Source: Candidatus Iainarchaeum sp.
GTDB taxonomy: Archaea; Iainarchaeota; Iainarchaeia; Iainarchaeales; JACQJH01
DNA length: 32,000 nucleotides
Direction of reading: 5' to 3'
Assembly: GCA_016205145.1 (NCBI GenBank)
Contig: JACQJH010000002.1
Span: forward strand, 270,001 to 302,000
Part shown: piece by piece, positions 1,301 through 30,908 of the stretch
How the letters are laid out: every line of letters starts with the position of its first letter
Numbering within the stretch: the first letter of the stretch is position 1
Made by a program: the position numbers and the translations under genes
The notes under the pieces: model-generated
The model's input: the letters and a program-made list of their open reading frames with translations, nothing else
The model's database searches: none
What the model was told of the DNA's origin: nothing

Positions 1301-1365
1301 AAAAACCACCAAATAAGGCAATGTATTTAATAGCAACAATCTAAAAAATTATTAGGATTGACTCA
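1301..1365. promoter_or_regulatory. AT-rich divergent promoter region between two glycosyltransferase genes
   Basis: This 65-nt AT-rich spacer holds two TATA-like boxes. TATTTAATAG (1323-1332) faces the minus-strand gene. AAAAATTATTA (1344-1354) faces the plus-strand gene and lies ~26 nt before the second ATG at 1375. Confidence 0.4.
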
Positions 1366-2550: not shown

Positions 2551-2563
2551 CAGAAGGCAGAAA

Positions 2564-3484
2564 ATGGGAAATGAGATAGCCAACCTGGAAAAAAGCGGCC
2601 GTGGGGCGTTCGTAACGGCAGTCATCCTACTTTACAACAGCCGAAACCATGTAATGAATTGTATTGAATCTTTCAGAAACCTGGATTACAAAAACTTTCA
2701 AATAATTGTTGTTGATAATTACTCTGTTGACGGAAGCCTTGACGTTGTCAGACAAAAATACCCGTCAATAAGGACAATAAAAAACGAAAAAAACCTTGGC
2801 TATGCTGCCGGAAATAACATCGGCATAATGGAGGCTCTCAAAGACAAAAAAACAAAATATGTTTACATTACCAACCCGGACATTTTACAGGAAAGGGGCA
2901 CACTTGGAAAACTCGTTAGAAGAGCCGAACAAGAAAAAGACTGCGGCATCATCGGACCAGTCATATACGAAAGCGCTTCCGGCGGGGTGGAATTTGCCGG
3001 CGCCACAATCGACAATGCGACTGGAAAAATAACTTTTTTACATCAAAAACCGAAAAAGGCGCTTGAAAGCCTTTACGCGATGGGCTGCGCAATGCTTGTA
3101 AACAGGAAAGTGTTTGAAAAAATAGGCTTGTTTGATCCCGACTATTTCTGCTACTGGGAAGAAACGGATTTTTGCATGCGTGCAAAAAAAGCAGGATTCA
3201 GAGTGTTGGTGACACCTGAAACCACAATAATCCACAAAGGCATTGAAGAGAAAGAAAAGGATTTATGGCACAATCTGGAAAAAAACTATTTTTTGTCAAA
3301 AAACTATTTTCGTTTTGTCAAAAATAATATTGAAAAACGCAGGCACAAGGAATTTATACTGGCTTTTTTAACCACGACATTTCTGAAAAAAATTAAAGCC
3401 GGGGCATTAAAAGCTGACTTTGCTACAATTTTAGGGACGCTTGCAGGAACCACTAAAGGGGCGATAGAATTCTGCCTACATTAA
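2564..3484 (+). CDS. Glycosyltransferase family 2 (GT-A fold, rhamnosyltransferase-like)
   Basis: The N-terminus VTAVILLYNSRNHVMNCIESFRNLDYKNFQIIVVDNYSVDGS is the classic GT2 start. It is followed by ITNPD and GCAMLVNRKVFEKIGLFDPDYFCYWEETDFCMRAKKAGF. The start lies 13 nt after the upstream stop. Confidence 0.9.
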   Translation: MGNEIANLEKSGRGAFVTAVILLYNSRNHVMNCIESFRNLDYKNFQIIVVDNYSVDGSLDVVRQKYPSIRTIKNEKNLGYAAGNNIGIMEALKDKKTKYVYITNPDILQERGTLGKLVRRAEQEKDCGIIGPVIYESASGGVEFAGATIDNATGKITFLHQKPKKALESLYAMGCAMLVNRKVFEKIGLFDPDYFCYWEETDFCMRAKKAGFRVLVTPETTIIHKGIEEKEKDLWHNLEKNYFLSKNYFRFVKNNIEKRRHKEFILAFLTTTFLKKIKAGALKADFATILGTLAGTTKGAIEFCLH

Positions 3485-3500
3485 GTTCAATGTGGGTTGC

Positions 3501-4733
3501 ATGACTATCCCCTTAAAAAAAAAACGGAAACTGACTGCGATGACCAGAAATCACCTGATCCTCTCGAACACGCTTCCGGAAAGGCACCCGTACGCGCTCC
3601 TGCTTTACTCCGGACTCAGGAAACACGGATTTGAAGTGCAAAGCCCGCAGAACAGGGCGGGCGTGCGCCTTTGCGCGGAGATTGCGGCAATTTTCCCTAA
3701 AACCCGCATCGTGCATTTGCACTGGATAGAGCACGTTTTCAGCGGCGGGCCCGGAAAATTCCCCGCCATGGCCGGGATTGTCATGGCATCGGCGTTCCTG
3801 TGCTTTCTTGCGCTCGCAAAGTTTCTCGGCAAAAAAATCGTCATAACAATCCACAACGTCGAACCGCACAGGACGCTTTTTCCGCGGCTGGAAAAAGAAG
3901 TGTTCGGCCTCGCCATAAGGATTGCCGACGCGGTGATAGTGCACAATGCCTGGAGCAAAAGGAAGGCAGTTGCTGTTTACCGGCTGAACGGGCGCCAGGC
4001 GGGAAAAATCAGCGTGATACCGCACGGTAATTTCATCGGATACTACAAAAATTCCGCGGGCAGGAAAAAGGCGAGGGCATCGCTTCAAATCCCGCAAAAC
4101 TGTTTTGTGCTCCTGGTTTTCGGCGAAATGCGCGAACAGAAGGGCATTGCCGTGTTCCTGAAGGCGGCCGGGAACGCCATAAAAAAGGACAAGGGCATTT
4201 TTGTGGTGTTTGCCGGCAGGTGCCTCGAGGACAGAGTGAAAGAATCCATTTTGTCGTTTGCGGAAAAGTTTAAGGGAAACTGCATTGCAAGGCTTGAATT
4301 CATTCCAGATGCGGAAGTGCGGGCGTTCATCAACGCGGCCGACGCCGGAGTGCTGCCATACGAGAGGGTTTCAACGTCTGGCGCGCTGATACTGTTCATG
4401 TCCTGCAACAAGGCGGTAATCGCGCCAAAACTCGGGCCGGTGACGGAACTGCTCGGCGCATATCCGCTTCTTTTCAAGCCGAAAAACGCGAAAAGCCTTG
4501 AGAGGGCAATCTTCAAATCTAAAAAATTGCGTCTGGAAAAAATCGGGGAAGGCCTCCGCGCAAAATCCAAACGGCTCGGATGGAAAACAATTTCCGGGTC
4601 GACGGCCAGATTATTCGAAAAAATCCTGGACAGAAGGCGGGGCGGGCAGAAACCGGGCCGGCGGAAAAGCCGGCGGCCGGCTGGAAAACCAAAAACAATG
4701 CTTAAAGCCAGAACGGCCAAGAGCATAACCTAA
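3501..4733 (+). CDS. Glycosyltransferase (GT-B, GT4/GT1-like) with basic C-terminal tail
   Basis: Track ORF 3492..4733. Motifs include GKKIVITIHNVEPH and VLPYERVSTSGALILFMSCNKAVIAPKLGP (GT-B donor-binding half). Start is ambiguous: GTG 3492, ATG 3501 or ATG 3540 (MTRNHLILSN). The last ~35 aa are Arg/Lys/Pro-rich (RRRGGQKPGRRKSRRPAGKPK). Confidence 0.8.
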   Translation: MTIPLKKKRKLTAMTRNHLILSNTLPERHPYALLLYSGLRKHGFEVQSPQNRAGVRLCAEIAAIFPKTRIVHLHWIEHVFSGGPGKFPAMAGIVMASAFLCFLALAKFLGKKIVITIHNVEPHRTLFPRLEKEVFGLAIRIADAVIVHNAWSKRKAVAVYRLNGRQAGKISVIPHGNFIGYYKNSAGRKKARASLQIPQNCFVLLVFGEMREQKGIAVFLKAAGNAIKKDKGIFVVFAGRCLEDRVKESILSFAEKFKGNCIARLEFIPDAEVRAFINAADAGVLPYERVSTSGALILFMSCNKAVIAPKLGPVTELLGAYPLLFKPKNAKSLERAIFKSKKLRLEKIGEGLRAKSKRLGWKTISGSTARLFEKILDRRRGGQKPGRRKSRRPAGKPKTMLKARTAKSIT

Positions 4734-4742
4734 GGTGGCGCA

Positions 4743-5924
4743 ATGGAAAAAACCAGAATCTGCATTTTCGACGCGGTTCACAAGGCGAACGACTCGAGAA
4801 TTTTTTACCGGGAGGCAAGGAGCCTCGCAAAAAGGTTTGCCACCAGCATGATAGCCCAAAGCGACTGCCAGAATCCGGAAAGCCGGGAAATAAAATTTGT
4901 GTTCATAAAACCGCAGAAAAACCGCCTTTTGAGGGTGCTGTTCACGGACTTTGAAATTTTCAGGAAAGCGCTCGGGCAGAACGCCGACATATACCACTTC
5001 CACTGCCCGGAAATGCTCGGCTATGCCGTGATGCTCAGGCTACTCGGAAAAAAGGTCATTTACGACGTCCACGAAAACTATACGCAGTTCATTCTCTACA
5101 AGCACTACCTACCAAGGCCGGCAAGGAAGCCCCTGGCGTTCCTGTTCCGGCATTTTGAGGACTTTTGCTGCGGTTTCTTTGACACCATCATTTTGTCAGA
5201 CGGGGTTTACCTGAAGCGGTTTGAAAAATTCGCGGACAAATGCGTTTTGATAAAAAATTATGACGTGCCGGAAGACCTGGGCGCTTTTGCCGGAAAGCGC
5301 AGGGGCAAAAAAACTTTCGGAATCATTTATGCCGGAAGCGTGCAGGGGATTCGCGGCATGCAAAACATGCTCAACGCATTCGCCGAGGCCTCCGCACGCA
5401 TTCCGCAGGCGAGGCTTTCAATAGTCGGCTCGCCCGAATCCGAGGAATACGCGCGGTGGCTCAGGGGATACGCCGAAAGCCTCGGCATCGGCGCAAAAAC
5501 CGGGTTTTTGTGCGATGGGTTTGTCGACCACCGCGAAATAGAGGCGCATTACAATGCCGCCGACATCGGGCTTGCATTGTATCCGCGCATAAGGATACAC
5601 CGCCACAAATTCGTGACCAAATTCTTCGAATGCATGAAGCACGGCGTTCCGATAATCGCAAGCGACTTTCCGGAGTGGAAAAGCTTTCTGAAAAAATACG
5701 GCTGCGGGACCACCGCCGACCCCAAAAAACCCGCCGAAGTGGCCGAAAAGATCGTTTGGCTCGCTAAAAATCCCGCCGCAAGGAAAGCGATGTCGGAGGC
5801 CGGAAAAAAGGCGTTCAGGGAAAAATTCAACTGGTCGTCGGAGGAAAAAAAGCTCTTTGAATTGTATGAAAAACTGGTTGAATCCACCCGCAATAAAAGC
5901 GCCGTGGGAGATGCTTCCAGATGA
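4743..5924 (+). CDS. Glycosyltransferase family 4 (GT-B fold)
   Basis: 393-aa ORF. Motifs: IYHFHCPEMLGYAVMLRLLGKKVIYDVHENY (N-domain) and TKFFECMKHGVPIIASDFPEWKSFLKKYGCG (E-x7-E-like donor site). The start lies 9 nt after the upstream stop. Confidence 0.85.
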   Translation: MEKTRICIFDAVHKANDSRIFYREARSLAKRFATSMIAQSDCQNPESREIKFVFIKPQKNRLLRVLFTDFEIFRKALGQNADIYHFHCPEMLGYAVMLRLLGKKVIYDVHENYTQFILYKHYLPRPARKPLAFLFRHFEDFCCGFFDTIILSDGVYLKRFEKFADKCVLIKNYDVPEDLGAFAGKRRGKKTFGIIYAGSVQGIRGMQNMLNAFAEASARIPQARLSIVGSPESEEYARWLRGYAESLGIGAKTGFLCDGFVDHREIEAHYNAADIGLALYPRIRIHRHKFVTKFFECMKHGVPIIASDFPEWKSFLKKYGCGTTADPKKPAEVAEKIVWLAKNPAARKAMSEAGKKAFREKFNWSSEEKKLFELYEKLVESTRNKSAVGDASR

Positions 5925-6865
5925 GCGCCGCAAAAAACCGGCCGGATTTTGTCGTAATCGGCGCGCAAAAGGCGGGCACGTCGTTTGTGGCCAGGTGCCT
6001 TGCCGGGCATCCGCGGATTTTCATGCCTGAAACTGAGATTCCTTTTTTCAGGAACGAAAACGCGCCGGTGAAGGACGCGGAAGATTTCAATGCCCTGTTT
6101 GCCGGACTCGATGGCGGGACCATTGCCGGCGTAAAGGACCCGCTGTATTTGGCCACTGCGGGCTGCGCCGAAAAAATTGCGGAGAACAATCCCGGCACAA
6201 AAATCATTGCGGTTCTGCGCGACCCGCTTGACAGGATGCTGTCCGCATATTACATGAACATGTGCTGCAACCAGCTGCCGGTCGTGGAACCCGAAACAGG
6301 CATTGCAAGAATCCTTGAAAAGCGCGGCCGCGACAAAAGCGGACCGGAGCGCCGCCTCACGGAATGCGGCTTTTACCACCGGCATCTTTCAAGGTATTAC
6401 AGGAATTTTGACAGGGCACAGGTTATGGTCCTGCTTTACGACGACCTGAAAGCCAGCCCGCTTGCGGAAATCCGCAAAATCTACGGGTTTTTGGGAGCGG
6501 AAAAAAACTTCAAGCCAGGCTGCATCGGCAGAAGGGAAAACGCGGGCACGTATTCCCTGACAGCAATCCGGCTGTTCGCCCTGGCGCAGGCGGCCCTCTT
6601 TGTGCGGAACACGTCATTCGGCCTTGCGGATGGCGGCGTGTATTTGCATTGCCGCCCAAAAAACCGGTTTTGCGGGGCAATAGCCGGCGCCGGAAAAGGC
6701 ATTTACAGGGAACTGCTGCCCTGCATCGGAAAAAAACCGCGCTTAAGCCGCGGCCTGTCCGAAAAAATCAGGAAAATGTATGCGCCGGACATCCGCAGGC
6801 TTGAAAAAATACTCGGCAGAAACCTTTCCGGATGGAAAGCCAACGGCGGCGAAAACAACGGCTGA
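5921..6865 (+). CDS. PAPS-dependent sulfotransferase domain protein
   Basis: The 5'-phosphosulfate-binding loop is present (PDFVVIGAQKAGTSFV), as is the 3'-phosphate-binding motif (AVLRDPLDRMLSAYY). GFYHRHLSRYYRNFDRAQVMVLLYDDL is typical of the Sulfotransfer_1/3 families. The start ATG overlaps the upstream stop (ATGA at 5921-5924), indicating translational coupling to the preceding glycosyltransferase. Confidence 0.85.
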   Translation: MSAAKNRPDFVVIGAQKAGTSFVARCLAGHPRIFMPETEIPFFRNENAPVKDAEDFNALFAGLDGGTIAGVKDPLYLATAGCAEKIAENNPGTKIIAVLRDPLDRMLSAYYMNMCCNQLPVVEPETGIARILEKRGRDKSGPERRLTECGFYHRHLSRYYRNFDRAQVMVLLYDDLKASPLAEIRKIYGFLGAEKNFKPGCIGRRENAGTYSLTAIRLFALAQAALFVRNTSFGLADGGVYLHCRPKNRFCGAIAGAGKGIYRELLPCIGKKPRLSRGLSEKIRKMYAPDIRRLEKILGRNLSGWKANGGENNG

Positions 6866-6936
6866 CCGGCCGGTTTCCGATATGGCCACGGCATCTTGCG
6901 GGGCACTGCGGGAAAAGCCGCTTGGGCAAATGTGCA

Positions 6937-8292
6937 TTATAACCGCCACGGCCAGAAAACAAGCATTCCCGCCGAAAGCCACAAAATCCTTTGCCCGGAA
7001 AAGTCAAAGCTGAACTGGGCCTCGACAAGCCCGATGGCAAAGGCTACAAAAAAAAGAATAAAAAAATCCCTTTCATGCCCGGCCGCCATCGGCTTCAGCC
7101 GCAGGAAAAACGAATAAATGGCCAAAACCAGGAACACTGCAAGCAACGCCAGGCCGGCTGCGCCCAGTTCGCTTGAAGCCTCAAGGAAAATGTTGTGAGG
7201 ATAAGGAACGGGCCTGTTTCCCAGGACAATAAGGGAATACTCCGGCAGCGTGGAACCGTACTCTTTGGAAAAAGCGCCCAGGCCCCATCCCAAAAGCGGC
7301 TTTTTCATTGTGAGGCCAATCGCGGCAGAATAAAGTGCGCCCCTGGCCGAAATGCCGCGGTCCTCGGACAGAAAATCAGGCGAAATGAAGACGAATGCCT
7401 GCGGGAAAAGAAAAAACGCCAGGACGCAGAACGCGGCGGCTAACGCGGAAAAAACCAGGAACGCCCTGCCGAACCTTTTTGCAAAAAACACCGCGAACAA
7501 AACCGAGCCCGCGAGCAGGCTCAATATCGGCCCGAGGGACTGGGAAAAAACCGCCAGCAGGAGAAAGAACGCGGCGCAGGCGCCGAAAAAAAGCCTCTTG
7601 GCCGGCGGGCCGGGCCGCATGGAATAAAAGGCGCTTATGAAAAAACCCAGGGCAAAAAAAATTCCAAGAAGGACTATGTTGCGGGCGAGGCCAAGGGTTG
7701 CCTCGCGGAAATCCACGAAAAACAGGAGCGAATAAACAAACAGGCCGGAGCCCATTCCGAGTATGCCGAAAAAGACCGCCTTGAAAAACCGGTCGAACTG
7801 CCCCGAACCAGTGCCCACGAACGCGGGAAACAGGAAAACCGGGACTGCCATGACCAAGAAACTCGAGAATTTTTCGGCTCCCTGCGCGGCATCCGACGAC
7901 CACATAAGAGACAGGCCCATTAATGCCGTGAAAAGCGCGAAAAAAATCGCTGGCGCGGAAAAAATTTTTGCGAAAAAATCGTTTTTCCTCACGGGCGACA
8001 ATGCCACGGCAAGCGCAAGCACCGGCAACACGACAAAAACGGGGTTTATTATGTGCTCGAAGTTTTCCGGAAAAAGCGCGAACATCGGCGACAGGAAAAA
8101 CACCGCGAACGCAATCCCCGGATTCCTTGCAAGGACGGGCAGGTTGACGAGGCAAAACAGCGCAAGCAAAAAAACCGTTTCGGGCAGGCGCACCACGCCG
8201 GAAACGAAAAAGACCGCGCACAAGCCCGCCAAAAAAAATTTCCACCACAAGCCGGAAACGCCCGGCTCCTGATGCGTGACTGCGGCGGGCAT
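6937..8292 (-). CDS. O-antigen ligase/polymerase-like (Wzy_C family) polytopic membrane protein
   Basis: Track ORF 6937..8367 (TTG). The ATG at 8292 (MPAAVTHQEPGV...) avoids overlap with the upstream gene and lies 28 nt downstream of a TATA-like box (minus-strand CTTTATATT, 8316-8324). The protein is very hydrophobic with more than 10 TM segments. It carries the Wzy_C loop motif PVPYPHNIFLEASSELGAAGLALL. Confidence 0.8.
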   Translation of the reverse strand: MPAAVTHQEPGVSGLWWKFFLAGLCAVFFVSGVVRLPETVFLLALFCLVNLPVLARNPGIAFAVFFLSPMFALFPENFEHIINPVFVVLPVLALAVALSPVRKNDFFAKIFSAPAIFFALFTALMGLSLMWSSDAAQGAEKFSSFLVMAVPVFLFPAFVGTGSGQFDRFFKAVFFGILGMGSGLFVYSLLFFVDFREATLGLARNIVLLGIFFALGFFISAFYSMRPGPPAKRLFFGACAAFFLLLAVFSQSLGPILSLLAGSVLFAVFFAKRFGRAFLVFSALAAAFCVLAFFLFPQAFVFISPDFLSEDRGISARGALYSAAIGLTMKKPLLGWGLGAFSKEYGSTLPEYSLIVLGNRPVPYPHNIFLEASSELGAAGLALLAVFLVLAIYSFFLRLKPMAAGHERDFFILFFVAFAIGLVEAQFSFDFSGQRILWLSAGMLVFWPWRL

Positions 8293-8332
8293 AAAACAAA
8301 AATATGCGGAGCGCGAATATAAAGCTTTCCGG

Positions 8333-10411
8333 CTAACCGGCCTTTTCGATCGACATGTCGTCGACAAGAATCGTGCCCCGCCCTGAAAGGTTTGAAGACG
8401 TGATCACTGACGGCCTGACGCCCGCGATTTCCCCGCCCGTCCTGAAAACAAGGCGCCTTTCAAACCACCCGCCTCTTGGCGCGGAACCGTCAACAAACTG
8501 GTCCAAACCCGAAAAGGTTATGCCGAGGCATTCCGGCGGCTTTCCCGCGCATTCCTTGCGGCCGAAAAAAAACGCGGAAAGCCGGAACGTTCCTGAAAAA
8601 TCGCCGTTTTCTGGTACGAAAAAAAATGCGGAAAGCACATAATCCGAATCCGGTTCCAGGCTCACGGCATAAGCGTTGAAAGTCGAAAGGCCCGCCCAGC
8701 TTTTAGTCGGGCCTTCAACGCGCAGGCCCATCGAACGCTTTCCGGAGCGCGCGTTTTCGGACAAAAATATTTCCGAGTTGTTGAACGAGTCCCAGCCCTT
8801 GAAGCCGTCTTCAAAGCCAGGATTCACAAGCCCGCCCTTCAACTCATGCGAAATGCCGGATTCAAGCGCCTGCTGCGCCTCCAAAAGAAACGGCGCAAGG
8901 GAAAAGGCGGCGAAAACAACCGAAAAAGCCGAGGCCAGTGCAAGCAGATGTTTCCATGAAACCTGCTTTTCGGGGGAACCGCCGCCTGAAGCGCCAATCG
9001 ACATTCCCGCAAAAAGCCAGAACACAAAGGCGTTCCTAGCCGAAAACAAGGCGAATTCGAAAAAGCCGCCCGCAAAAAAAATCAGGGCGGAAAGGAAAAG
9101 CGCGGCGCAGGCGCCGGAACTTTCACGCCGCGACAAAAGCCGTTTGGCAAGCAGGAAAACAAGCGCGGCCTGGAAAAAAAGGAAAAACAATCCTGCGGGA
9201 ACCCCGCGCTCCAGCGCAAAATGCAGGAAAGAATTGTGCGCATTCTTCGGCCCCCCGAAGTCTTTTCCGGCCAGGCCGAAATAGGCCATTTCAAACGAGC
9301 CGAAGCCGTTGCCGAAAAAAGGCTCTTGAAGCGCGGCTCGGGCGCTGACCGAAAAAACCTGCGCACGGATTTCCGGACTGCGGTCCACAACCGAAAGCCT
9401 GTTGAAAAAGGAATACTCCGAAGGCGTGGCTTCCCCGGAATTGCCGAAAACCGTGCCGTACAATATTGCGACGGAAAACATCAGCAGGAGGCATGCGGCG
9501 GCCGACAAGCCCAAAGCCAGCGTGCGGCCCCGCGCCTGACGGGCCGTTGATGGCCAGTTATGCAGTTTCAAAAGCATTGCCGCCAGCACGCCAAGCAGGG
9601 CAAGAATCCAGGCGCCGCGCGAGTACGTGTAAAGCAGTGCAAGCAGCAGCGGCAGGCACGAAAAAAGGAAAAGCATTCTTTTCCAGCCATGCGAAAACAG
9701 TGCAAAAGAAAACGCGGAGGAAAAAAAAACCGCGAAGAACAGCCCCGCGGCATTCTCATAAAAAAACGGGAATTCAAGCCGGTAAAAGGAAGCCGGGCCC
9801 TGGAACCCCAAAAAAAGGCCCGCGCCGGGCGCCGAATGGAAATTGAAAAGGATTATTCCGGAAACCGCGAGAAAAACCGCCGCGGCAAGCATTGCAATGA
9901 AAGATTTCCGGGGCGAAACCGCGAACGTGAAAAACCCGCGTCCGATAAGGTAAAGCAAAATGAACTCGAACGAGAGGACCGCCAGCCTCAAGGGATAGGG
10001 TTCAAAGGCGTTTCCCGCAAAAACGCCGGCAACAAATGCCGCGCCTGAAAACAAAAAAAAGCCGCCCGCAAAAAAATCGGCAATGCCCGCCTTGAAGGCA
10101 AAGCCCTTTTCCGAAAAAAAGGCGCGCGACAGCGCGGAGGCCGCAAAGCCAAGCAGGGCGAACTCCGCCAAAAGGATGTTTTCGGCGGAAAATCCGTTCT
10201 GCAAAAAAGGCGACAGCGCGGCAAAAACCGCAAGGGCATAAAACGCCGGAACGGGCCGCAAAAGCGCGGCCGCGAAAAACACCGCAAACACCAGCAATGG
10301 AACCGCAAAATCCCCGGAAACCCATAACAGCGCCGCCGCGGAAACAAGCGAACAGAAAAACAGGACCGTGAAAAAAATCCTGAAAACCGTGGCACGCCCA
10401 GAAAGTTCCAT
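8333..10411 (-). CDS. Wzy_C/O-antigen-ligase-like membrane domain fused to a C-terminal CBM4_9-like carbohydrate-binding module
   Basis: Track ORF 8333..10414 (GTG); the ATG is the next codon at 10411. The N-terminal ~520 aa are polytopic, with the motif GPKNAHNSFLHFALERGVPAGLFF. The C-terminal ~165 aa read LVNPGFEDGFKGWDSF...SGKRSMGLRV...LEPDSDYVLSAFFFVPENG...GGWFERRLVFRTG...ILVDDMSIE, a CenC/CBM_4_9-like pattern. Confidence 0.8.
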   Translation of the reverse strand: MELSGRATVFRIFFTVLFFCSLVSAAALLWVSGDFAVPLLVFAVFFAAALLRPVPAFYALAVFAALSPFLQNGFSAENILLAEFALLGFAASALSRAFFSEKGFAFKAGIADFFAGGFFLFSGAAFVAGVFAGNAFEPYPLRLAVLSFEFILLYLIGRGFFTFAVSPRKSFIAMLAAAVFLAVSGIILFNFHSAPGAGLFLGFQGPASFYRLEFPFFYENAAGLFFAVFFSSAFSFALFSHGWKRMLFLFSCLPLLLALLYTYSRGAWILALLGVLAAMLLKLHNWPSTARQARGRTLALGLSAAACLLLMFSVAILYGTVFGNSGEATPSEYSFFNRLSVVDRSPEIRAQVFSVSARAALQEPFFGNGFGSFEMAYFGLAGKDFGGPKNAHNSFLHFALERGVPAGLFFLFFQAALVFLLAKRLLSRRESSGACAALFLSALIFFAGGFFEFALFSARNAFVFWLFAGMSIGASGGGSPEKQVSWKHLLALASAFSVVFAAFSLAPFLLEAQQALESGISHELKGGLVNPGFEDGFKGWDSFNNSEIFLSENARSGKRSMGLRVEGPTKSWAGLSTFNAYAVSLEPDSDYVLSAFFFVPENGDFSGTFRLSAFFFGRKECAGKPPECLGITFSGLDQFVDGSAPRGGWFERRLVFRTGGEIAGVRPSVITSSNLSGRGTILVDDMSIEKAG

Positions 10412-10432
10412 CACATTAAATCAGGCGAAATC

Positions 10433-10444
10433 GGTATATATACC
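10433..10444 (-). promoter_or_regulatory. Palindromic TATA box (GGTATATATACC) for the 8333..10411 gene
   Basis: Perfect 12-nt palindrome. Its centre is ~27 nt upstream of the ATG at 10411 on the minus strand, a spacing typical of archaeal leaderless transcripts. Confidence 0.5.
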
Positions 10445-10463
10445 TTTTTCCGCGTCCGGGGGC

Positions 10464-10519
10464 GTGTAAGTATTCTGGTTTCTGTGTAAGAAATAGCCCC
10501 TAACAAGGTTTACTTACAC
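10464..10519. promoter_or_regulatory. Three copies of heptamer GTGTAAG (two direct, one inverted); candidate transcription-factor site
   Basis: GTGTAAG occurs at 10464-10470 and 10484-10490, and its complement CTTACAC at 10513-10519. The outer copies extend to a 9-bp inverted repeat, GTGTAAGTA / TACTTACAC. The element lies between the stop of the 10574..11779 gene and the TATA box of the next gene. Confidence 0.4.
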
Positions 10520-10573
10520 AAAGCTTCCGCGGCCTGCCGGCCCGATGCGGAATGCCCGCAGGCGGCGGGAAAG

Positions 10574-11779
10574 TCAGGCCTTTTTCAAGCCGAGCCCGTC
10601 GACAAAAAATTCCCCGGACGAATCCGGTTCCACCGACGAAAAGAATGGGACAAAATTCGTGGCATCGGCATCCGTTGTGAACACGGCGGATTTTTCAAGC
10701 CATGCGCCCCTCTGGCTGTTGGCGTCAACGGACAAATCGGATTTGACAAGCGAATGCCTGTGGCACCCCTTGTCCCCGCCACAGCCATCCGGGCCCAGCA
10801 CGTGGAATGCCAGCTTGAAGTTTCCGGAAATATCCGCGCCTTCCGGGATGAATACCCTGCCTGAAAAAACATAGTTCGTGTCAGGCTCAACCGAAACCCT
10901 TGCAACGTTTGACATTGTAAGGCCGGAGTACAGCGGGTCGGCTCCGGTGACAACCACTTTCATTGAGTGCCTGCCCGAAAAAGCAGGGTTTTCCGCAACC
11001 AGAATCTTTCCGCCGCCGTTCACGGTCCAGGGAATTATGCCGTCCTCAAAATCCCGGTTCGGAATGTCAAAAAGCGTTTTTCCCGCAACACCAGCGAATT
11101 GCCTTGTCTCATCCCCAAGCAATTCAAGGTCCAGGCTGTCAACAAAAACGGGCCCAAACTGCCCTTTGCCCGGAGAAGTGACAAACGGAAAAACATGTTT
11201 TGCCTTAGAGCCTGTGCGGAACGTGACAAACCGTTCAACCCATTCGCCGCGGACGCCGCCGTCAACAGACGGGGCTGAATCAACCACTTCCGCATAGCAG
11301 GCCTGGCCTTCGCAGCCGTCCTCTCCCCTAACCTGAACTCCCATCCTCAAGCTGCCGCCGGTTTCCGCGCCATCCGGCACAAAAAAATGCGCCGAAAAAC
11401 GGTAAACCGTGTCCGGCTCCACGGCAAGCCGCACGCCGTAGCCGAAAACCGCGCCGGAATAAGCCTTTGAACCCGGCTTGACCAGGACCTTGAGCGAATT
11501 TTTTCCCGAAAACGCGCGCTCCGATGACAGGGAAACCGCCGCATCCATTTGCGCAACCCATGGAACCGCGCCAAGCTCAAAATCCGGGTTGGGCAATTCA
11601 AGGACGTCCATGCCGGAAATCCTTGCCGAAAGGGCGCGCTCGGCACGCAAGCCTTCGGTCTGCACGAAAAAGGCGGCAAGCCAGCCGATTGCGATTCCCA
11701 GAACCATCACGGTTCCGAAAACCGCCGCTGCCGGCCACAAGCCCTTTGCAGTCGAATCCTCCGCCATCATGAATGCCAT
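10574..11779 (-). CDS. Membrane-anchored protein with two tandem CBM4_9-like carbohydrate-binding modules
   Basis: ATG at 11779, ~25 nt downstream of a TATA-like AATAATTTAATTA on the minus strand. There is one N-terminal TM segment (GLWPAAAVFGTVMVLGIAIGWLAAFFV). Two ~165-aa repeats follow: LPNPDFELGAVPW...SGKNSLKVLV...VEPDTVYRFSAHFFVPDG...GEWVERFVTFRTG and IPNRDFEDGIIPW...SGRHSMKVVV...VEPDTNYVFSGRVFIPEG...GAWLEKSAVFTT. Both are paralogous to the C-terminal module of the neighbouring gene. Confidence 0.8.
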   Translation of the reverse strand: MAFMMAEDSTAKGLWPAAAVFGTVMVLGIAIGWLAAFFVQTEGLRAERALSARISGMDVLELPNPDFELGAVPWVAQMDAAVSLSSERAFSGKNSLKVLVKPGSKAYSGAVFGYGVRLAVEPDTVYRFSAHFFVPDGAETGGSLRMGVQVRGEDGCEGQACYAEVVDSAPSVDGGVRGEWVERFVTFRTGSKAKHVFPFVTSPGKGQFGPVFVDSLDLELLGDETRQFAGVAGKTLFDIPNRDFEDGIIPWTVNGGGKILVAENPAFSGRHSMKVVVTGADPLYSGLTMSNVARVSVEPDTNYVFSGRVFIPEGADISGNFKLAFHVLGPDGCGGDKGCHRHSLVKSDLSVDANSQRGAWLEKSAVFTTDADATNFVPFFSSVEPDSSGEFFVDGLGLKKA

Positions 11780-14617: not shown

Positions 14618-15595
14618 ATGGCTTTTTTGGGCGCAACTCTGTCTGGCACCGTTACAAGGTCGCCTGAAACCATCAAATCGCACAGGCTTGTGCGCGACGG
14701 GCACGCAAAATACGATGAGTTCAAGGCACGCGTTGACAAGGACGCCGAAGAAATTCTTGCCGCACAGCAAAAAGGCTTTGCCTTTGTTTCCGGCGGACAG
14801 CTCGACTGGCTCGATTTGATGAGGCCGCTGGCGCATTCCTGGACGGGGTTTGCTAAAAGGCAGAGCGAAGGCGAGGACGCCATTGGACCGGTCACTCGCT
14901 GGTTCAGGACAAACACGTTTTACAGGAAGCCGAGCGTTTCCGGAAAACTTGAATGCGGGGGCAGCGAGATTGCCGACTGGCTGCCGAAAGTTGAAGGCAA
15001 CGGCATTGTTTTTTTGCAGGGGCCTTACACGTTTTTCAGGCTCGCCGAGCACTCCCATTACAAAAGCGGGCAGGAATTTGCAGACGATTATGCCGAAGCA
15101 ATCGTGAAAAGTTCCATGGCATTGAAGGCAAAAGGCTATTCGGCGGTTTTGTTCTCCGAAAATTCCGTGGGCTACGATTTGTCGCTGAAAAGGCTTGACG
15201 AAAAACTGTGGGCAGAGGATTTCGCGGAAAAGGCGAAAAAAGGCGGATTGAAGGTCGGAGTGAACTTTCCGCTTGCCGACGCCTCCAAGGTTTTGCATCT
15301 GGCTGAAGGCACGGCATTCGATTTTGCCGGCATCGACGCTTCGTTCACTGACTTTGCGCAGGTGAAAACCTCGAAGGACATACTGCTCGGCGCGGCCGAC
15401 GGGCAGCGCATCGGCGTTGAAATGCCGGAGCACATGGCGAAGATTGCACGCGAGTTTGAAAAGTCCGCGAAGTTTTCCGGCGATTATTTCATCGGCCCCA
15501 ACGACAGGCTGTTCGACGTGCCGTTCGAGCAGGGCATTGAAAAAATAAAATCGCTTGCCGGCGCGGCAAAAATTCTTGGCAGGGGCGGAAACTGA
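14618..15595 (+). CDS. MetE N-terminal-domain-like protein (cobalamin-independent methionine synthase family, non-catalytic half)
   Basis: 325 aa with a (beta/alpha)8-like pattern, e.g. SGGQLDWLDLMRP and GVNFPLADA. No His-x-Cys / Asp-Cys-Gly zinc site was seen. It lies directly upstream of the catalytic MetE-like ORF, the split layout I recall from archaeal metE loci. Assignment rests on weak similarity plus context. Confidence 0.55.
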   Translation: MAFLGATLSGTVTRSPETIKSHRLVRDGHAKYDEFKARVDKDAEEILAAQQKGFAFVSGGQLDWLDLMRPLAHSWTGFAKRQSEGEDAIGPVTRWFRTNTFYRKPSVSGKLECGGSEIADWLPKVEGNGIVFLQGPYTFFRLAEHSHYKSGQEFADDYAEAIVKSSMALKAKGYSAVLFSENSVGYDLSLKRLDEKLWAEDFAEKAKKGGLKVGVNFPLADASKVLHLAEGTAFDFAGIDASFTDFAQVKTSKDILLGAADGQRIGVEMPEHMAKIAREFEKSAKFSGDYFIGPNDRLFDVPFEQGIEKIKSLAGAAKILGRGGN

Positions 15596-15615
15596 ACAAT
15601 TGGTTTGGGTTGTTT

Positions 15616-16791
15616 ATGGCAAAGTCTTTCATAACGCAGGAAATCGGAAGCATCCAGCGCCCGATCTGGCGGCAGGAGCTTAACGCGAAGGCAAATCCGG
15701 CTTGGATAAAGGATGCGCTTTCATGGGGCCAAAGGCTGGGCGTCGAAAACGAAATTGTTGAAGAGTTGGAAACGCTTTTGTCAAAGGACGGCAAGGAGAG
15801 AAGCGGGGAAGAGAAGAAGCGCATTGTCGACATTTCAAGCATTTTTGTGATTCGCATGCAGGAGAAGGCCGGGCTGGACAGGGTTTTCAACGGCGAACAG
15901 CCGCGCACGGAAATGTACGACATGCTCGCACGCAAGATTCCCAACATTGAAAAGGCGGGTTTTGTGAATTCATTTGACGCGAATTATTTCAGGAAAGGCA
16001 TTCTTGCCGGTGAACTCGAACTCGAGAAGGATGCCGTGCAGTGGTTTGTCGAAGAATTCGATTTTGTGAAAAAAAACACCGGCAGGATTGTCAAGCCATG
16101 CATTACCGGCGCTTACACAATGACGGACTGGAGTTACGTTGAATTCTTCCAGAAAAAGCACGAGAAAGCGGGGAAAAGCAGGACGGAAGCCTACATGGCG
16201 GGAAGGCGCGAAGCCATTCTTGCATTTGCGGAGCACGTGATCAGGCCTGTCGTTGATGCGCTGGTTGAAGCCGGCGCGGAAGTCGTGCAGATCGACGAGC
16301 CTGCCGCCGCGACAAACGAGCAGGAGTCAAGGGTTTTCACGGAATCCATAAACTCCTCTTTCGCCAACGCGCCGAAAAGCGTTGAAAAGGCCGTGCACCT
16401 GTGTTACAGCAATTATTCCGTGCTGTTCCCGGAGCTGTCCGAATCGGTTGCTGATTCCTACCAGATCGAATTCACGAACCACGCTTCGCCGGGAAAATTC
16501 GGCGCGAAAAGCGTGAACCCTGAAGCGTTCAAGGCAATCGAATTATTCAAGCAATACAAAATGCCCATCAGCGTCGGCGTGGGCGTAGTCGACATCCACT
16601 CTGACGTAATTGAATCGCCCCAGCTTGTCAAGGACCGCGTCCTGCTCGCTTCCGAGCTTCTGGGCGGACCGGAAAAAGTGCAGGTCAACCCTGACTGCGG
16701 CCTGAGGACGAGGACTTGGGAAGTTGCGTTCAAAAAACTGCAGAACATGGTCGAAGGCACGGCTCTTGCGAAAAAAGAACTCGGCATATGA
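15616..16791 (+). CDS. metE: Cobalamin-independent methionine synthase, catalytic (Meth_synt_2) domain protein
   Basis: Zinc-site motifs are present: AVHLCYSNY (His-x-Cys) and VQVNPDCGLRTRTW (compare E. coli MetE NPDCGLKTR). Also IQRPIW and VVQIDEPA. The track ORF starts at TTG 15610; the ATG at 15616 (MAKSFITQEIG) is preferred. Confidence 0.85.
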   Translation: MAKSFITQEIGSIQRPIWRQELNAKANPAWIKDALSWGQRLGVENEIVEELETLLSKDGKERSGEEKKRIVDISSIFVIRMQEKAGLDRVFNGEQPRTEMYDMLARKIPNIEKAGFVNSFDANYFRKGILAGELELEKDAVQWFVEEFDFVKKNTGRIVKPCITGAYTMTDWSYVEFFQKKHEKAGKSRTEAYMAGRREAILAFAEHVIRPVVDALVEAGAEVVQIDEPAAATNEQESRVFTESINSSFANAPKSVEKAVHLCYSNYSVLFPELSESVADSYQIEFTNHASPGKFGAKSVNPEAFKAIELFKQYKMPISVGVGVVDIHSDVIESPQLVKDRVLLASELLGGPEKVQVNPDCGLRTRTWEVAFKKLQNMVEGTALAKKELGI

Positions 16792-28518: not shown

Positions 28519-29433
28519 ATGCAGAAAATAGTTGACTTCGACTCGGACGCATTCTCCGCCAAGGGAATTTCAGGAGTGTTCGCAAACTCCGGCTTCCAGG
28601 CGACAAACATTGCCGGGGCTGTCGAGTTGATTGAAAAAATGAAAAAGGACAAGGCGACGATCATTCTCAGCTTCACCGCAAACATGGTGGCAACGGGAAT
28701 GCGAGGCATCATCGCGGAACTGTGCAGGAAAAAATTCGTCGACGCGATCATAACAACTGCCGGCAGCACAGACCATGACATCATCAAAAGCTTCGTGCCA
28801 TACTCCGTCGGAAGCTTTGACGCCGATGATTCCGAACTGCACGCCAAAGGCATCAACAGGATCGGCAACATTTTCGTGCCCACAAAAGGCTTCGAGGTTT
28901 TGGAACAGAAAATAAGGCCCGTTTACAAAAAAATGCTTGAAGGCAAAAAGCCTTTTTCGCCCAGCGAACTCAACTCCGAAATCGGCGGAATACTCGGAAA
29001 GGACTCGTTCCTTTACTGGTGCAGGAAAAACTCGATTCCTGTTTTCTGCCCCGGCATAACCGACGGCGCGATCGGGCTGCAAATGTACTTTTTCAGGCAG
29101 GACAACCCTGGTTTCATTGTTGACGTCACAAAGGACATGAAAGAGCTGGCTGACATTGTGCTGAACGCGGACAAAACCGGGGCAATCATTTTAGGCGGCG
29201 GAATCTCCAAGCACCATACAATCGGCGTGAACATTCTGCGAGAAGGCCTCGACTACGCGGTTTACGTTTCAACGGCAGGCGAGTTCGACGGCAGCCTCAG
29301 CGGCGCAAGGCCGAAAGAAGCGAAAAGCTGGGGCAAGCTCAAGGAAAAAGGTTCTTCCGTCCACGTTTTCTGCGAAGCCACAATCGCAGTGCCATTGATT
29401 GTCGCGTCGCTCAAGGAAAAAGGGCTGTTGTGA
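28519..29433 (+). CDS. dys: Deoxyhypusine synthase
   Basis: 304 aa. Motifs: SGFQATNIAGAVELIEKM, TTAGSTDHDIIK, NRIGNIFVP, PGITDGAIG, ILGGGISKHH, and the catalytic-lysine region RPKEAKSWGKL. Confidence 0.93.
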   Translation: MQKIVDFDSDAFSAKGISGVFANSGFQATNIAGAVELIEKMKKDKATIILSFTANMVATGMRGIIAELCRKKFVDAIITTAGSTDHDIIKSFVPYSVGSFDADDSELHAKGINRIGNIFVPTKGFEVLEQKIRPVYKKMLEGKKPFSPSELNSEIGGILGKDSFLYWCRKNSIPVFCPGITDGAIGLQMYFFRQDNPGFIVDVTKDMKELADIVLNADKTGAIILGGGISKHHTIGVNILREGLDYAVYVSTAGEFDGSLSGARPKEAKSWGKLKEKGSSVHVFCEATIAVPLIVASLKEKGLL

Positions 29434-29440
29434 AAAGCGC

Positions 29441-30370
29441 ATGATTCCGGAAGTCATTTTGTTCGGGTTGTCGGGCTTTTTCGCAAAGCTCACGGACAAC
29501 CTTGTCGACGAAAGGTTCGTTTCAAGGGATAGCCTCAAGTACTTCACTGCAATAATGTACGGCGCGGTTGCCGGCTACCTTGCATCGACGAATTCGGATT
29601 TTGCAACGCTCATTTTCGGGATAATGGCGGGCAACATAGCGTTCGGCAGGATCGACCACAAGGCGCACCAGCTTGGCGTGGCAATCATAATAGCGGTTGT
29701 CGCGGTTTTCGGCTTAGCGCAAATCAACGCATTGCTGTTCATTGCGTTCGCACTGCTTGCATGGCTCGACGAGTTCCTGAACGACTTGGAAAAAAGCCCG
29801 GGCGTGCTCGGCGAAAGGCCGATGCTGCCATTGGCGTGCATTGCCATCGGCGCATTTTACGGCAATTGGATTTTCCTCATGGCAATCGTGGCATTTGACG
29901 CGAGCTACCGGCTGGCGGATTACGCCATGGAAAGGCTCATGAAAAAATTCAAGGCGGAGTTTGGGCCGCAGCTTGCAATCGACTGCTACAAGTGCAAAAG
30001 CAAAAACCTGTCAAGCGAAAGCTTTGTCAAAAAATTCCTCCTCGAACTCGCAAAAACAATCGGCATGAAACCCATCAGCGGGCCTGCCACAATAAACTAT
30101 TCCGCGGAAAAACCCGACGACAACGGCATTTCAGGCTTCATTCTCATAGCCGAATCGCACATAAGCATCCACACCTATCCCGCGCGCGCACTCGCAAAAG
30201 TCGACATAGTCTCATGCAAGGAATTCGAACAGGCGCAGGCAGTGGAGTTCGTGCGGAAAAAGCTTGAAGCCGAAGACGTGGTGTGGAAAAGGATCGAGCG
30301 CGGAAAAGAATACCCGAAAGACGTCGAAGAAGCCAAAGGCATAATTGACAGGGAAAGAAAAAGCGCCTGA
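29441..30370 (+). CDS. Polytopic membrane domain fused in frame to a pyruvoyl-dependent S-adenosylmethionine decarboxylase (SpeH/SpeD class 1) domain
   Basis: Track ORF starts at TTG 29399 inside dys. The ATG at 29441 lies 8 nt after the dys stop. Residues ~1-160 form 4-5 hydrophobic helices (VILFGLSGFFAKL, AIMYGAVAGYLAS, LIFGIMAGNIAFG, LGVAIIIAVVAVFGLAQINALLFIAFALLAWL, LPLACIAIGAFYGNWIFLMAIVAF). The C-terminal ~140 aa read FGPQLAIDCYKC...GISGFILIAESHISIHTYPA...KVDIVSCK, with the Glu-Ser self-cleavage site of AdoMetDC proenzymes. An internal in-frame ATG at 29927 could also express the soluble domain alone. This cannot be distinguished from the crenarchaeal arginine-decarboxylase paralogue by eye. 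Confidence 0.75.
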   Translation: MIPEVILFGLSGFFAKLTDNLVDERFVSRDSLKYFTAIMYGAVAGYLASTNSDFATLIFGIMAGNIAFGRIDHKAHQLGVAIIIAVVAVFGLAQINALLFIAFALLAWLDEFLNDLEKSPGVLGERPMLPLACIAIGAFYGNWIFLMAIVAFDASYRLADYAMERLMKKFKAEFGPQLAIDCYKCKSKNLSSESFVKKFLLELAKTIGMKPISGPATINYSAEKPDDNGISGFILIAESHISIHTYPARALAKVDIVSCKEFEQAQAVEFVRKKLEAEDVVWKRIERGKEYPKDVEEAKGIIDRERKSA

Positions 30371-30908
30371 ACAACGCGGACTTCAGGCCAGGCAAAAACC
30401 AGATTGCCATTGAAGAGGCGACAGCACAAAAGCAGATGGGTATTGCAACGGCAATGCTCCAAGATCCAAAGATTCCGGGCACGTCGCAAAATCTTGGATT
30501 TTACAAAGTACCCGTCGTCGGAACCGGCGTTGCGAGCAGGGCGAGCCAGCTACACTGCAGGGGTTGCACCCCTTGCAAACCCCGCAAAGCATGCGTGGTG
30601 TTCCGCAACAGCGTGAACACCACAAAACGTACCCGCCGGACGAGACGGCTGCGGACGAAACCGCCGAGTCAGAGGAACAGGTGCGCCGCAACAAGCACCA
30701 CAATCGTTGCAACCGCAAAGCCAACCACAAACAACGGCGGGATTTTCGGCCCTTTAGTGTCCGAATCAAAAAAACGCATTATGCCCAGGCTGGAACTCGG
30801 CCCTGAAACGCCCGGACCCTTTGAAAACTTGACCAACAAAAACCACCCTCTGGAAAAACCAATGAAAGATTATTTAAGGGGGTTACCAATAAAAATAATT
30901 GGTTTGAC

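Follow-up and report, generated by a model that had tools for sequence, protein, structure and literature searches.

A SpeD-fold decarboxylase fused to a membrane module and encoded beside deoxyhypusine synthase in a DPANN archaeon

Known systems and the new locus

The SpeDA enzymes have the fold of the S-adenosylmethionine decarboxylases (AdoMetDC, or SpeD) and decarboxylate L-arginine to agmatine. They are the closest described counterparts of a protein encoded in Candidatus Iainarchaeum sp., within a stretch of 32,000 nucleotides (contig JACQJH010000002.1, positions 270,001 to 302,000) that is called the window here. At positions 29441-30370 of the window, on the forward strand, one open reading frame (ORF) joins an N-terminal membrane module to a pyruvoyl decarboxylase proenzyme of the SpeD fold. 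It directly follows a gene for deoxyhypusine synthase (DHS). The best overall explanation, to which a probability of about 0.55 is given, is a protein of two modules, in which the decarboxylase makes agmatine and the membrane module handles a cationic ligand.

The biochemistry of the SpeDA enzymes comes from two studies (Li, Liang, Phillips & Michael, JBC 2023, PMC10407285; JBC 2026, PMC13625781). SpeD homologues from metagenome-assembled genomes (MAGs) of the DPANN groups Diapherotrites and Woesearchaeota, found in clusters with speY and speB or aguAB, decarboxylate arginine and are inactive on ornithine and lysine (PMC10407285). Neofunctionalised SpeD candidates were reported to be without AdoMetDC activity, and speY encodes a DHS homologue (PMC10407285). 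The bacterial SpeY joins two molecules of agmatine to form N1,N9-bis(guanidino)homospermidine, which a SpeB homologue hydrolyses to homospermidine; the same work asks whether archaea own agmatine-dependent DHS enzymes (PMC13625781). Experimentally verified SpeDA enzymes include PIN84875, PIN80235, PIS27863 and WP_119321511. For characterisation, the enzymes were purified as recombinant proteins of the ordinary kind. Neither paper describes a membrane segment, and the word “membrane” is absent from both.

The present locus resembles these systems in the fold and catalytic residues of the decarboxylase. The SpeDA clusters likewise have a DHS homologue and agmatinase-family partners, occur in DPANN hosts, have no speE nearby and carry no SpeDC signature. 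The differences are that the decarboxylase is here fused to a seven-helix protein, that the cluster thereby has a fourth, undescribed membrane component, and that the neighbouring gene scores as an archaeal DHS and not as a bacterial SpeY. In addition, the activity of the present decarboxylase is a predicted one.

The second point of comparison is the class 1b AdoMetDC (SpeD or SpeH), with the structures 1TLU from Thermotoga maritima and 2III from Aquifex aeolicus. Both it and the new domain match PF02675 and share the Glu-Ser site, the histidine and the cysteine. Foldseek superposes them with TM-scores of 0.80-0.86 over about 118 residues at 23-26% identity. Unlike the class 1b enzymes, the domain described here has an acidic residue in place of a proline, a C-terminal 'RGKxYPKD...ER' extension and the membrane fusion, and no SpeE partner was found in the window or in related loci. 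Its subfamily also shows 'SCK' where the T. maritima and A. aeolicus enzymes show 'TCG'.

Polyamine-pathway enzyme domains placed C-terminal to a polytopic membrane domain are also found in haloarchaea. The SpeE-like proteins HVO_0255 and HVO_B0357 are described with seven N-terminal transmembrane segments (PMC5178350). The membrane domain of these fusions, to which Haloarcula WP_014030772 also belongs, is described as transporter-like. These proteins differ from the present one in their catalytic enzyme and in the length of the membrane domain (about 320 residues, against 166 here). A preliminary description of the window had mentioned membrane domains of SpeE-type enzymes as a precedent. Kinship of the two membrane domains was rejected, since hhalign gave a probability of 0.1% against residues 1-321 of WP_014030772, the one example compared. 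In Haloarcula hispanica pHH126 (positions 1499-3292 of locus L040), WP_014030772 is a 597-residue 'spermidine synthase' with a long polytopic N-domain, and a DUF2617 gene follows it.

Two further systems offer partial likenesses. In AdiA/AdiC and in the pyruvoyl HdcA/HdcP, a decarboxylase is tied to a membrane protein able to move the cationic substrate or product. Those membrane proteins are transporters of the amino acid-polyamine-organocation (APC) type with about 12 helices, exist as proteins of their own and function in acid resistance or energy, whereas the membrane protein described here is a novel module of about 170 residues linked to DHS. In Euryarchaeota, a cluster of aIF5A, agmatinase, (HVO_2298) and DHS has been described, and agmatine was proposed as the source of the aminobutyl group of deoxyhypusine (Prunetti et al. 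2016, PMC5178350). This cluster likewise places DHS with an agmatinase-like gene in archaea. It differs in that its arginine decarboxylase has another fold, and no aIF5A gene lies beside the DPANN clusters examined here.

The SpeD-fold decarboxylase, DHS and the clustering of the two are of kinds already known. New are the family of membrane proteins, the close coupling of its genes to archaeal DHS, and the fusions that join it to a decarboxylase or to an agmatinase-family domain. Full-text literature searches returned no description of any of these three, in agreement with the preliminary description, which gave no precedent for a membrane fusion of an AdoMetDC.

One polypeptide with two modules

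The fusion ORF begins with ATG at 29441 and ends with TGA at 30368-30370, encoding 309 residues. It is uninterrupted and follows the DHS stop codon (TGA, 29431-29433) after 7 nt, such that its ATG starts at the eighth nucleotide past the stop, as had been noted previously. An alternative in-frame TTG at 29399, 42 nt 5' of the ATG, would overlap the end of the DHS gene. Because homologues align from the ATG, the start is taken as 29441 and the TTG is treated as unused. An AlphaFold2 model of the full protein has a mean predicted local distance difference test score (pLDDT) of 84. The linker between the modules is short (about 5 residues), and residues 169-173 have a pLDDT below 50.

The fused form recurs widely. 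The closest full-length match, P0001, comes from a different assembly, is 95% identical and has the identical architecture. A search with the full-length protein gave eleven more full-length homologues of 300-339 residues, at 35-47% identity and 86-100% query coverage. Altogether the fused ORF is present in more than 25 independent assemblies (35-95% identity), and six-frame analysis of genome and metagenome loci finds that, for most loci of the close subfamily, one open frame carries the two domains together. An alignment of fused homologues shows no break in conservation over the junction, where D153 and Y156 are followed by G175. An assembly or frameshift artefact, which the preliminary description had named as the way in which the in-frame junction could prove spurious, is therefore ruled out. 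The ORF is real and encodes one polypeptide, made of two modules that are found apart elsewhere.

The SpeD-fold decarboxylase domain

The C-terminal module comprises residues 167-309 (29939-30367) and is a class 1b pyruvoyl decarboxylase domain of the SpeD fold. PF02675 matches residues 178-288 with 93 bits (cut-off 25), over profile positions 2-107 of 107. Sequence alignment with the T. maritima enzyme 1TLU gives an E-value of 1e-8 and about 38 bits. The predicted structure of the domain (pLDDT about 90) is matched by Foldseek to 1TLU, 1TMI and 1VR7 with target TM-scores of 0.84-0.86, an E-value of 4e-7 and a root-mean-square deviation of about 2 Å.

The catalytic residues can be placed by the same alignment. 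The codons GAA-TCG at 30152-30157 encode Glu238-Ser239, the predicted self-cleavage site, aligned to Glu62-Ser63 of the T. maritima enzyme. His244 (30170-30172) is equivalent to His68, and Cys259 (30215-30217) to Cys83. All four residues are invariant in 13 fused proteins and 10 C-domain sequences. The class-1 pyruvoyl proenzyme with a Glu-Ser processing site recognised earlier from the sequence is thus upheld by profile, catalytic residues and fold.

A profile search with the C-domain finds thousands of soluble relatives, 140-160 residues long and 38-54% identical. Archaeal ones come from Micrarchaeia, Anstonellaceae and Aenigmarchaeota, bacterial ones from groups such as Eisenbacteria. Fusions and soluble relatives have the subfamily motif '[DE][DE]xG[VIL]SG..IAESHISIHT[FY]P....D..SCK' in common. 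In a crude neighbour-joining tree the C-domains of the fusions stay apart from the soluble proteins sampled, and a single origin of the fusion is not settled by it. Matches in phages are cyanophage-type SpeD proteins at about 30-37% identity; a member of this group, that of S-PM2, is a true AdoMetDC, and the matches are uninformative on substrate.

The start of the domain lies slightly downstream of the point first proposed. Two in-frame ATGs, at 29927 (Met163) and 29939 (Met167), span 29927-29941 just 5' of the domain and are putative internal starts. The preliminary description set the first of them exactly at the domain boundary. The ATG exists, and Met163 proves to lie still inside the last helix of the membrane module. 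The decarboxylase domain proper begins at about residues 170-173, with 'FGPQL' at residues 173-177; soluble homologues begin with 'MFGPHL'. In soluble homologues the pyruvoyl serine is typically residue 69, which likewise puts the domain start near residue 171.

A family of seven-helix membrane proteins

The N-terminal module consists of residues 1-166 (29441-29938). An AlphaFold2 model of this domain alone has a pLDDT of 89 and a predicted TM-score (pTM) of 0.85. It predicts seven helices, at residues 2-23, 30-50, 52-68, 74-90, 97-116, 128-140 and 144-165, of which the sixth is short. A membrane domain had been recognised from the letters alone, and to that extent the earlier reading stands; its count of 4-5 hydrophobic helices was too low. 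In a 19-residue Kyte-Doolittle scan of the domain, only two regions exceed 1.5. The alternative that the N-terminal region is not a membrane domain, also raised at the outset, finds no support in the predicted seven-helix module.

The orientation can be read from loop charges. Across the family, the mean number of lysines and arginines is 1.9, 1.3 and 2.6 in loops 1, 3 and 5 and 1.8 after helix 7, against 0, 0.3 and 0.1 in loops 2, 4 and 6. By the positive-inside rule, the N-terminus is predicted outside and the C-terminus in the cytoplasm. The decarboxylase domain is therefore expected to be cytoplasmic.

The module was used for an exhaustive HMMER search, in which an alignment of the N-domain was compared with 1.84 billion cluster representatives. 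A word-indexed search with the N-domain profile had given only 4 matches, and the exhaustive search was needed. It found 601 representatives at E<=1e-3, of which 360 also pass E<=1e-10. The 150 with the best scores include 128 stand-alone membrane proteins, with a median of 178 residues, and 20 fusions of the membrane module to a SpeD-like domain. One of the same 150 is a fusion to an arginase-family domain (P0142; PF00491, E 6e-28), and one (P0100, 256 residues) has two partial copies of the membrane module. Among the SpeD-like fusions, P0026 (424 residues) has about 100 extra C-terminal residues, which have no Pfam match.

A few residues are strongly conserved. In 46 family members with 21-40% identity to the module of the window, D19, D72, H76, E111, D153 and Y156 are invariant, and G12, K16, G41 and R126 are kept in at least 90%. 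Four motifs hold most of them. K16-L-T-D19-N-L-V-D23-E24 (29486-29512) lies at the cytoplasmic end of helix 1. D72-H-K-A-H76-Q77 (29654-29671) runs from cytoplasmic loop 3 into the beginning of helix 4. D110-E111-F-L-N-D115 (29768-29785) lies at the cytoplasmic end of helix 5, and D153-A-S-Y156 (29897-29908) in helix 7. The invariant acidic, histidine and tyrosine residues thus lie in helix 7 and, in helices 1, 4 and 5, at the end predicted to face the cytoplasm.

No known family accounts for the module. Pfam and NCBIfam gave no match to the first 162 residues of the window's protein and nothing consistent for 10 family members. With Pfam on 46 members, each family was matched by at most two, and every match was below threshold. 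Foldseek of the modelled N-domain against the PDB gave no fold match (best E 1.3, TM-score below 0.3). The Pfam and Foldseek comparison of a modelled N-domain, suggested beforehand as a check, therefore ends without a named family or fold. An idea that the module has the 3+1+3 arrangement of SWEET or PnuC proteins is unsupported by the same PDB comparison. An internal duplication of helices 1-3 and 5-7 was also considered and is not demonstrated (70 columns in register, P = 0.0095, hhalign probability 4%). In the source database the family members are named 'hypothetical protein'. Judged by its sequences, the membrane module represents an archaeal (DPANN) family in its own right, undescribed so far, and is not an ad hoc anchor.

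Deoxyhypusine synthase and the gene neighbourhoods

The first gene of the pair, at 28519-29433 on the forward strand, encodes a DHS of 304 residues. It matches PF01916 (E 3e-107, 358.6 bits), TIGR00321 (318.4 bits, cut-off 304.25) and NF002294 (350.1 bits, cut-off 350). Its translation keeps the 'GGGISKHH' (GGGxSKHH) motif as well as 'KSWGKL', the SWGK motif with the catalytic lysine. By these profiles and motifs the gene is a bona fide archaeal-type DHS, and its closest matches are the DHS proteins of Iainarchaeum-type loci. The canonical DHS uses spermidine, and archaea cannot do without hypusine or deoxyhypusine on aIF5A.

A locus search with the N-domain alignment gave 13 genome loci and 9 metagenome loci. 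With duplicates removed, DHS lies directly upstream of the membrane-family gene in 20 of 24 informative loci of the close subfamily, at a distance of -4 to +52 nt. In nine distinct loci the two genes share a 4-nt overlap of the ATGA type, which indicates translational coupling. The polyamine module linked to DHS that was proposed for the window is therefore seen in relatives too, where a membrane-tethered decarboxylase of the polyamine pathway is coupled to DHS.

The arrangements can be written with DS for the DHS gene, TM for a membrane-family gene or module, ADC for a SpeD-like and ARG for an arginase-family gene or domain, and a double colon for a fusion. The order DS - TM::ADC is found in the window, L004, L008, L013-15, L018, L020 and L024-27, and ARG - DS - TM::ADC in L003 (Aenigmatarchaeota). 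Stand-alone membrane genes occur as DS - TM in L010, L012, L030 and L031, and as ARG - DS - TM in L022 (Micrarchaeota). Finally, L009 has DS - TM::ARG and L005 has ADC::DS - TM - ARG.

The last two show how the partners can be exchanged. In L009 (JGI Ga0611987_014648, 1044-3291), DHS is followed by P0142, a protein of 436 residues in which the membrane module is joined to an arginase-family domain. In L005 (GCA_964344235.1, CAYFMJ010000003.1, 10001-12730) the SpeD-like domain is fused to DHS instead (P0013, 450 residues); a stand-alone membrane protein and an agmatinase follow, and the genes overlap. The stand-alone protein (183 residues) matches the membrane-family profile with an hhalign probability of 99.6% (E 5e-24), and the agmatinase scores 207 bits with TIGR01230. 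L006 and L007 also show the SpeD-like::DHS arrangement, of which no published mention was found.

Of the five arginase-family proteins, four have the agmatinase model TIGR01230 as their top NCBIfam match, those of L005 and L037 above its cut-off and those of L003 and L022 just below. The arginase-family domain of P0142 scores about equally with the arginase and agmatinase models, far below both cut-offs. L037 is the locus of a soluble relative, P0185 (6001-7497, ENA ERZ25039492 contig_2926, a bacterial contig of 4.16 Mb), which is 43% identical to the window's C-domain. An agmatinase gene directly follows it, and there is no DHS/SpeY or SpeE within 6 kb. Among the contexts examined, P0185 is the closest soluble relative with a polyamine-gene neighbour.

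By fusion or as a neighbouring gene, the membrane module is thus linked to three enzymes able to form one pathway. Because it is fused to different partners of that pathway, there is strong genomic evidence that it belongs to it.

Arginine or AdoMet as substrate

The second module is predicted to decarboxylate L-arginine to agmatine, as the SpeDA enzymes do, and this prediction is probably correct. Arginine decarboxylase is preferred over AdoMetDC because of the agmatinase and DHS neighbours, the lack of speE in the loci, and the biochemistry of the DPANN SpeD homologues (PMC10407285). The gene content of the DPANN clusters examined here is that of the route through agmatine, SpeY and SpeB. 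No SpeE homologue was found in the window and 39 related loci, which together hold about 380,000 residues of six-frame ORFs (stop-to-stop, at least 50 residues); for the window, this bears out what the preliminary description had said of speE.

Residues near the processing site point in the same direction. Two residues before the GxSG motif, 28 of 30 fusions have Asp or Glu, and 113 of 120 soluble relatives have Asp. At the same position, Pro is found in T. maritima, in Aquifex and in three SpeD1 AdoMetDC domains, the last read from text obtained by optical character recognition. The Gln/Thr/Phe/Tyr residues diagnostic of SpeDC ('QLIETSLVSGHF...AYIDIFSC') are missing, and the window has 'ILIAESHISIHTYP...KVDIVSCK'. 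Without this ornithine-specific signature, the domain is either a SpeD (AdoMetDC) or a SpeDA (arginine decarboxylase).

The name AdoMetDC given in the preliminary description therefore fits the fold and probably not the activity, the partner genes of the relatives being agmatinase-family genes and DHS. Databases name the relatives 'adenosylmethionine decarboxylase', 'arginase family enzyme' or 'hypothetical protein'. This annotation is probably wrong on the activity of the decarboxylase, and it is silent on the membrane module.

Proposed mechanism

In the proposed mechanism, the proenzyme would cleave itself between Glu238 and Ser239. This would give a membrane-embedded beta chain (residues 1-238) and an alpha chain of 71 residues (239-309), with Ser239 converted to the pyruvoyl group. 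The alpha chain would stay non-covalently bound to the beta chain, placing the active enzyme on the cytoplasmic face of the membrane, where it would make agmatine from L-arginine. The co-translated DHS would use this agmatine, directly or after conversion, in a reaction of the agmatine-dependent DHS/SpeY type. An agmatinase-family ureohydrolase, adjacent in relatives and here presumed to be encoded elsewhere in the genome, would complete the chemistry. The product would be homospermidine, the deoxyhypusine of aIF5A, or both. Most likely, the membrane module would handle arginine, agmatine or a polyamine, as the cationic substrate or product, at the membrane and keep the enzymes in place there.

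That the module binds or moves such a ligand is speculative. Invariant acidic and aromatic residues are usual in sites for polyamines and basic amino acids. The role of the module is suggested by its genomic association. A more specific version would make the seven-helix protein the fourth component of an archaeal agmatine-dependent DHS pathway, either as a transporter of arginine, agmatine or polyamine, or as a membrane platform or enzyme serving DHS, the decarboxylase and the ureohydrolase. This version is put forward only tentatively and is more doubtful than the overall explanation.

Several observations count against this explanation. With regard to the substrate, the predicted arginine decarboxylase activity of the fusion and its fused relatives comes from comparison and context. 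One proline is fully conserved in AdoMetDCs and not in SpeDA (Li et al. 2023, PMC10407285). The proline of 'HT[YF]P', which may or may not be this one, is kept in the present subfamily. The fusion also passes TIGR03330, the NCBIfam equivalog model for AdoMetDC, marginally (77 bits, cut-off 75.65). This model does not separate the activities, since P0185, which is paired with an agmatinase, passes it as well with 84.7 bits, and so does P0013, which is fused to DHS, with 89.1 bits. No agmatinase gene was found within the 32-kb window. Furthermore, an arginase-family gene, DHS and a SpeD homologue are also compatible with a route of the Thermococcus type. In that route AdoMetDC and SpeE produce N1-aminopropylagmatine, from which a ureohydrolase makes spermidine. 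If it operated here, speE and another arginine decarboxylase would be needed elsewhere in the genome.

With regard to the membrane module, conservation lies in the predicted cytoplasmic half and not along a transmembrane path, a pattern that would suit a transporter no better than a pocket for binding or catalysis. The Micrarchaeia-type fusions of L001 and L021 have no DHS nearby. DHS is also absent beside the fusion of L017, where an agmatinase-like gene lies about 0.8 kb upstream. P0104 and P0150, which are distant stand-alone members, stand in unrelated contexts and not beside DHS. Given such members, the function of the membrane family may be more general.

Alternative explanations

The first alternative concerns the substrate. 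The C-terminal domain could be a true, membrane-tethered AdoMetDC, whose decarboxylated AdoMet would lead to spermidine, either directly or through N1-aminopropylagmatine, for use by DHS on aIF5A. The scores with PF02675 and TIGR03330 exceed the cut-offs, the catalytic triad is identical to that of the T. maritima enzyme and the fold agrees with a TM-score of 0.85. Spermidine is, moreover, the canonical substrate of DHS, and an agmatinase-family enzyme is part of the Thermococcus-type spermidine route too. Against this stand the lack of speE in the window and the 39 related loci, the acidic residues in place of the proline before GxSG, and the close soluble relative P0185, which is paired only with an agmatinase. 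In addition, the characterised DPANN SpeD homologues of speY/speB clusters are arginine decarboxylases (PMC10407285). AdoMetDC activity of the module is considered unlikely, and the complete spermidine scheme built on it a little more so.

The next alternatives concern the membrane module. The scaffold and enzyme readings are kept open by the conservation in the cytoplasmic half together with the absence of similarity to transporters. As a passive anchor or scaffold, the module would only localise DHS, decarboxylase and agmatinase as a metabolon and handle no ligand. It is indeed fused to one or the other of two enzymes of a single pathway, and its gene is coupled in translation to that of a third; searches of Pfam and of PDB folds showed no likeness to any family of transporters or enzymes. 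However, an anchor would need neither seven helices nor ten polar or charged residues, six of them invariant and four nearly so, kept across members only 21-40% identical to the window's module. A purely passive role is thus rather improbable.

The module could instead be a small membrane-embedded enzyme, for example a metal-dependent one, that catalyses an unrecognised step on agmatine, a polyamine or a lipid at the inner leaflet. Its invariant D, D, E, D, H and Y, with the nearly invariant K and R, at the cytoplasmic ends of helices 1, 4, 5 and 7, would suit this role; such clustering is typical of cytoplasm-facing active sites in integral membrane enzymes. Yet arginine decarboxylase, DHS and ureohydrolase already make a chemically complete route (PMC13625781), and neither Pfam nor Foldseek against the PDB gave a fold or motif match to known membrane enzymes. 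A catalytic membrane module appears somewhat less probable still than a passive one.

A device exchanging arginine for agmatine, comparable to AdiA/AdiC or HdcA/HdcP, would consume protons for pH homeostasis or the proton-motive force and have no part in biosynthesis. The direct fusion of a decarboxylase to a membrane protein rich in acidic residues would suit such a device, as would the fused genes without a DHS neighbour (L001, L021); Micrarchaeota also include acidophiles. The idea is nevertheless very unlikely in view of the DHS gene, which is tightly coupled in 20 of 24 loci, the agmatinase-family fusion of L009, and the DS - TM pairs that have no decarboxylase domain (L010, L012, L030, L031).

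Weakest of all is the notion that the fusion is an artefact (a frameshift, a chimeric assembly or read-through) or that it gives two proteins in vivo, the decarboxylase being made as a soluble protein from Met163 or Met167: two in-frame ATGs do stand 4-9 residues ahead of the domain start and soluble homologues of 140-160 residues are very common, but the same ORF with a conserved junction recurs in more than 25 independent assemblies, the position of Met163 is not Met in the Micrarchaeia-type P0010, P0011 and P0012, and no clear ribosome-binding site of the GGTGA type precedes 29927, so that this notion has hardly any probability left. Internal initiation may still occur alongside the full-length product.

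The host and other genes of the window

The source is a tiny archaeon of the symbiotic (DPANN) type. Named relatives of the locus are MAGs of Aenigmatarchaeota, Iainarchaeum and Micrarchaeota. The window also encodes a thermosome and a class-I aminoacyl-tRNA synthetase of the isoleucyl type. The gene order MscS-like protein, synthetase, DHS, fusion and Sec61-beta is common to the window, L004, L008, L014 and L020. In the window the Sec61-beta gene (30669-30839, reverse strand; PF03911, E 3e-11) lies directly downstream of the DHS-membrane pair, as it also does in L004, L008 and L010.

Some loci carry bacterial labels: L012, L014 and L016 are labelled Chloroflexota or Chloroflexi, and L020 Falkowbacteria. 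L014 and L020 are syntenic with the window, and L012 and L016 have DHS-linked membrane genes. All four are probably DPANN contigs misbinned as bacterial.

Two other regions of the window can be mentioned. A glycosylation island at 113-11779 has five glycosyltransferases (of the GT4 and GT2 types), a sulfotransferase and a CBM_4_9 protein, as well as two Wzy_C (O-antigen-ligase-like) membrane proteins of 476 and 693 residues. At 14618-16791, two adjoining genes (325 and 393 residues) each resemble a domain of MetE, the cobalamin-independent methionine synthase; the arrangement is like that of a split or duplicated short pair.

Implications

The source of the aminobutyl donor in archaea without spermidine synthesis is an open question. 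If the explanation favoured here, an agmatine-making decarboxylase joined to a ligand-handling membrane module, is true, archaeal polyamine and hypusine metabolism has a membrane component that has gone unnoticed. The synthesis of deoxyhypusine and homospermidine in DPANN archaea would then be membrane-associated, and the fusion with its DHS would offer a concrete system in which the use of agmatine by archaeal DHS can be tested. Polyamine biology would also gain a family of membrane proteins with no detectable relative among solved structures. Finally, its members would be candidate genes for the uptake of arginine or polyamines in host-dependent archaea.

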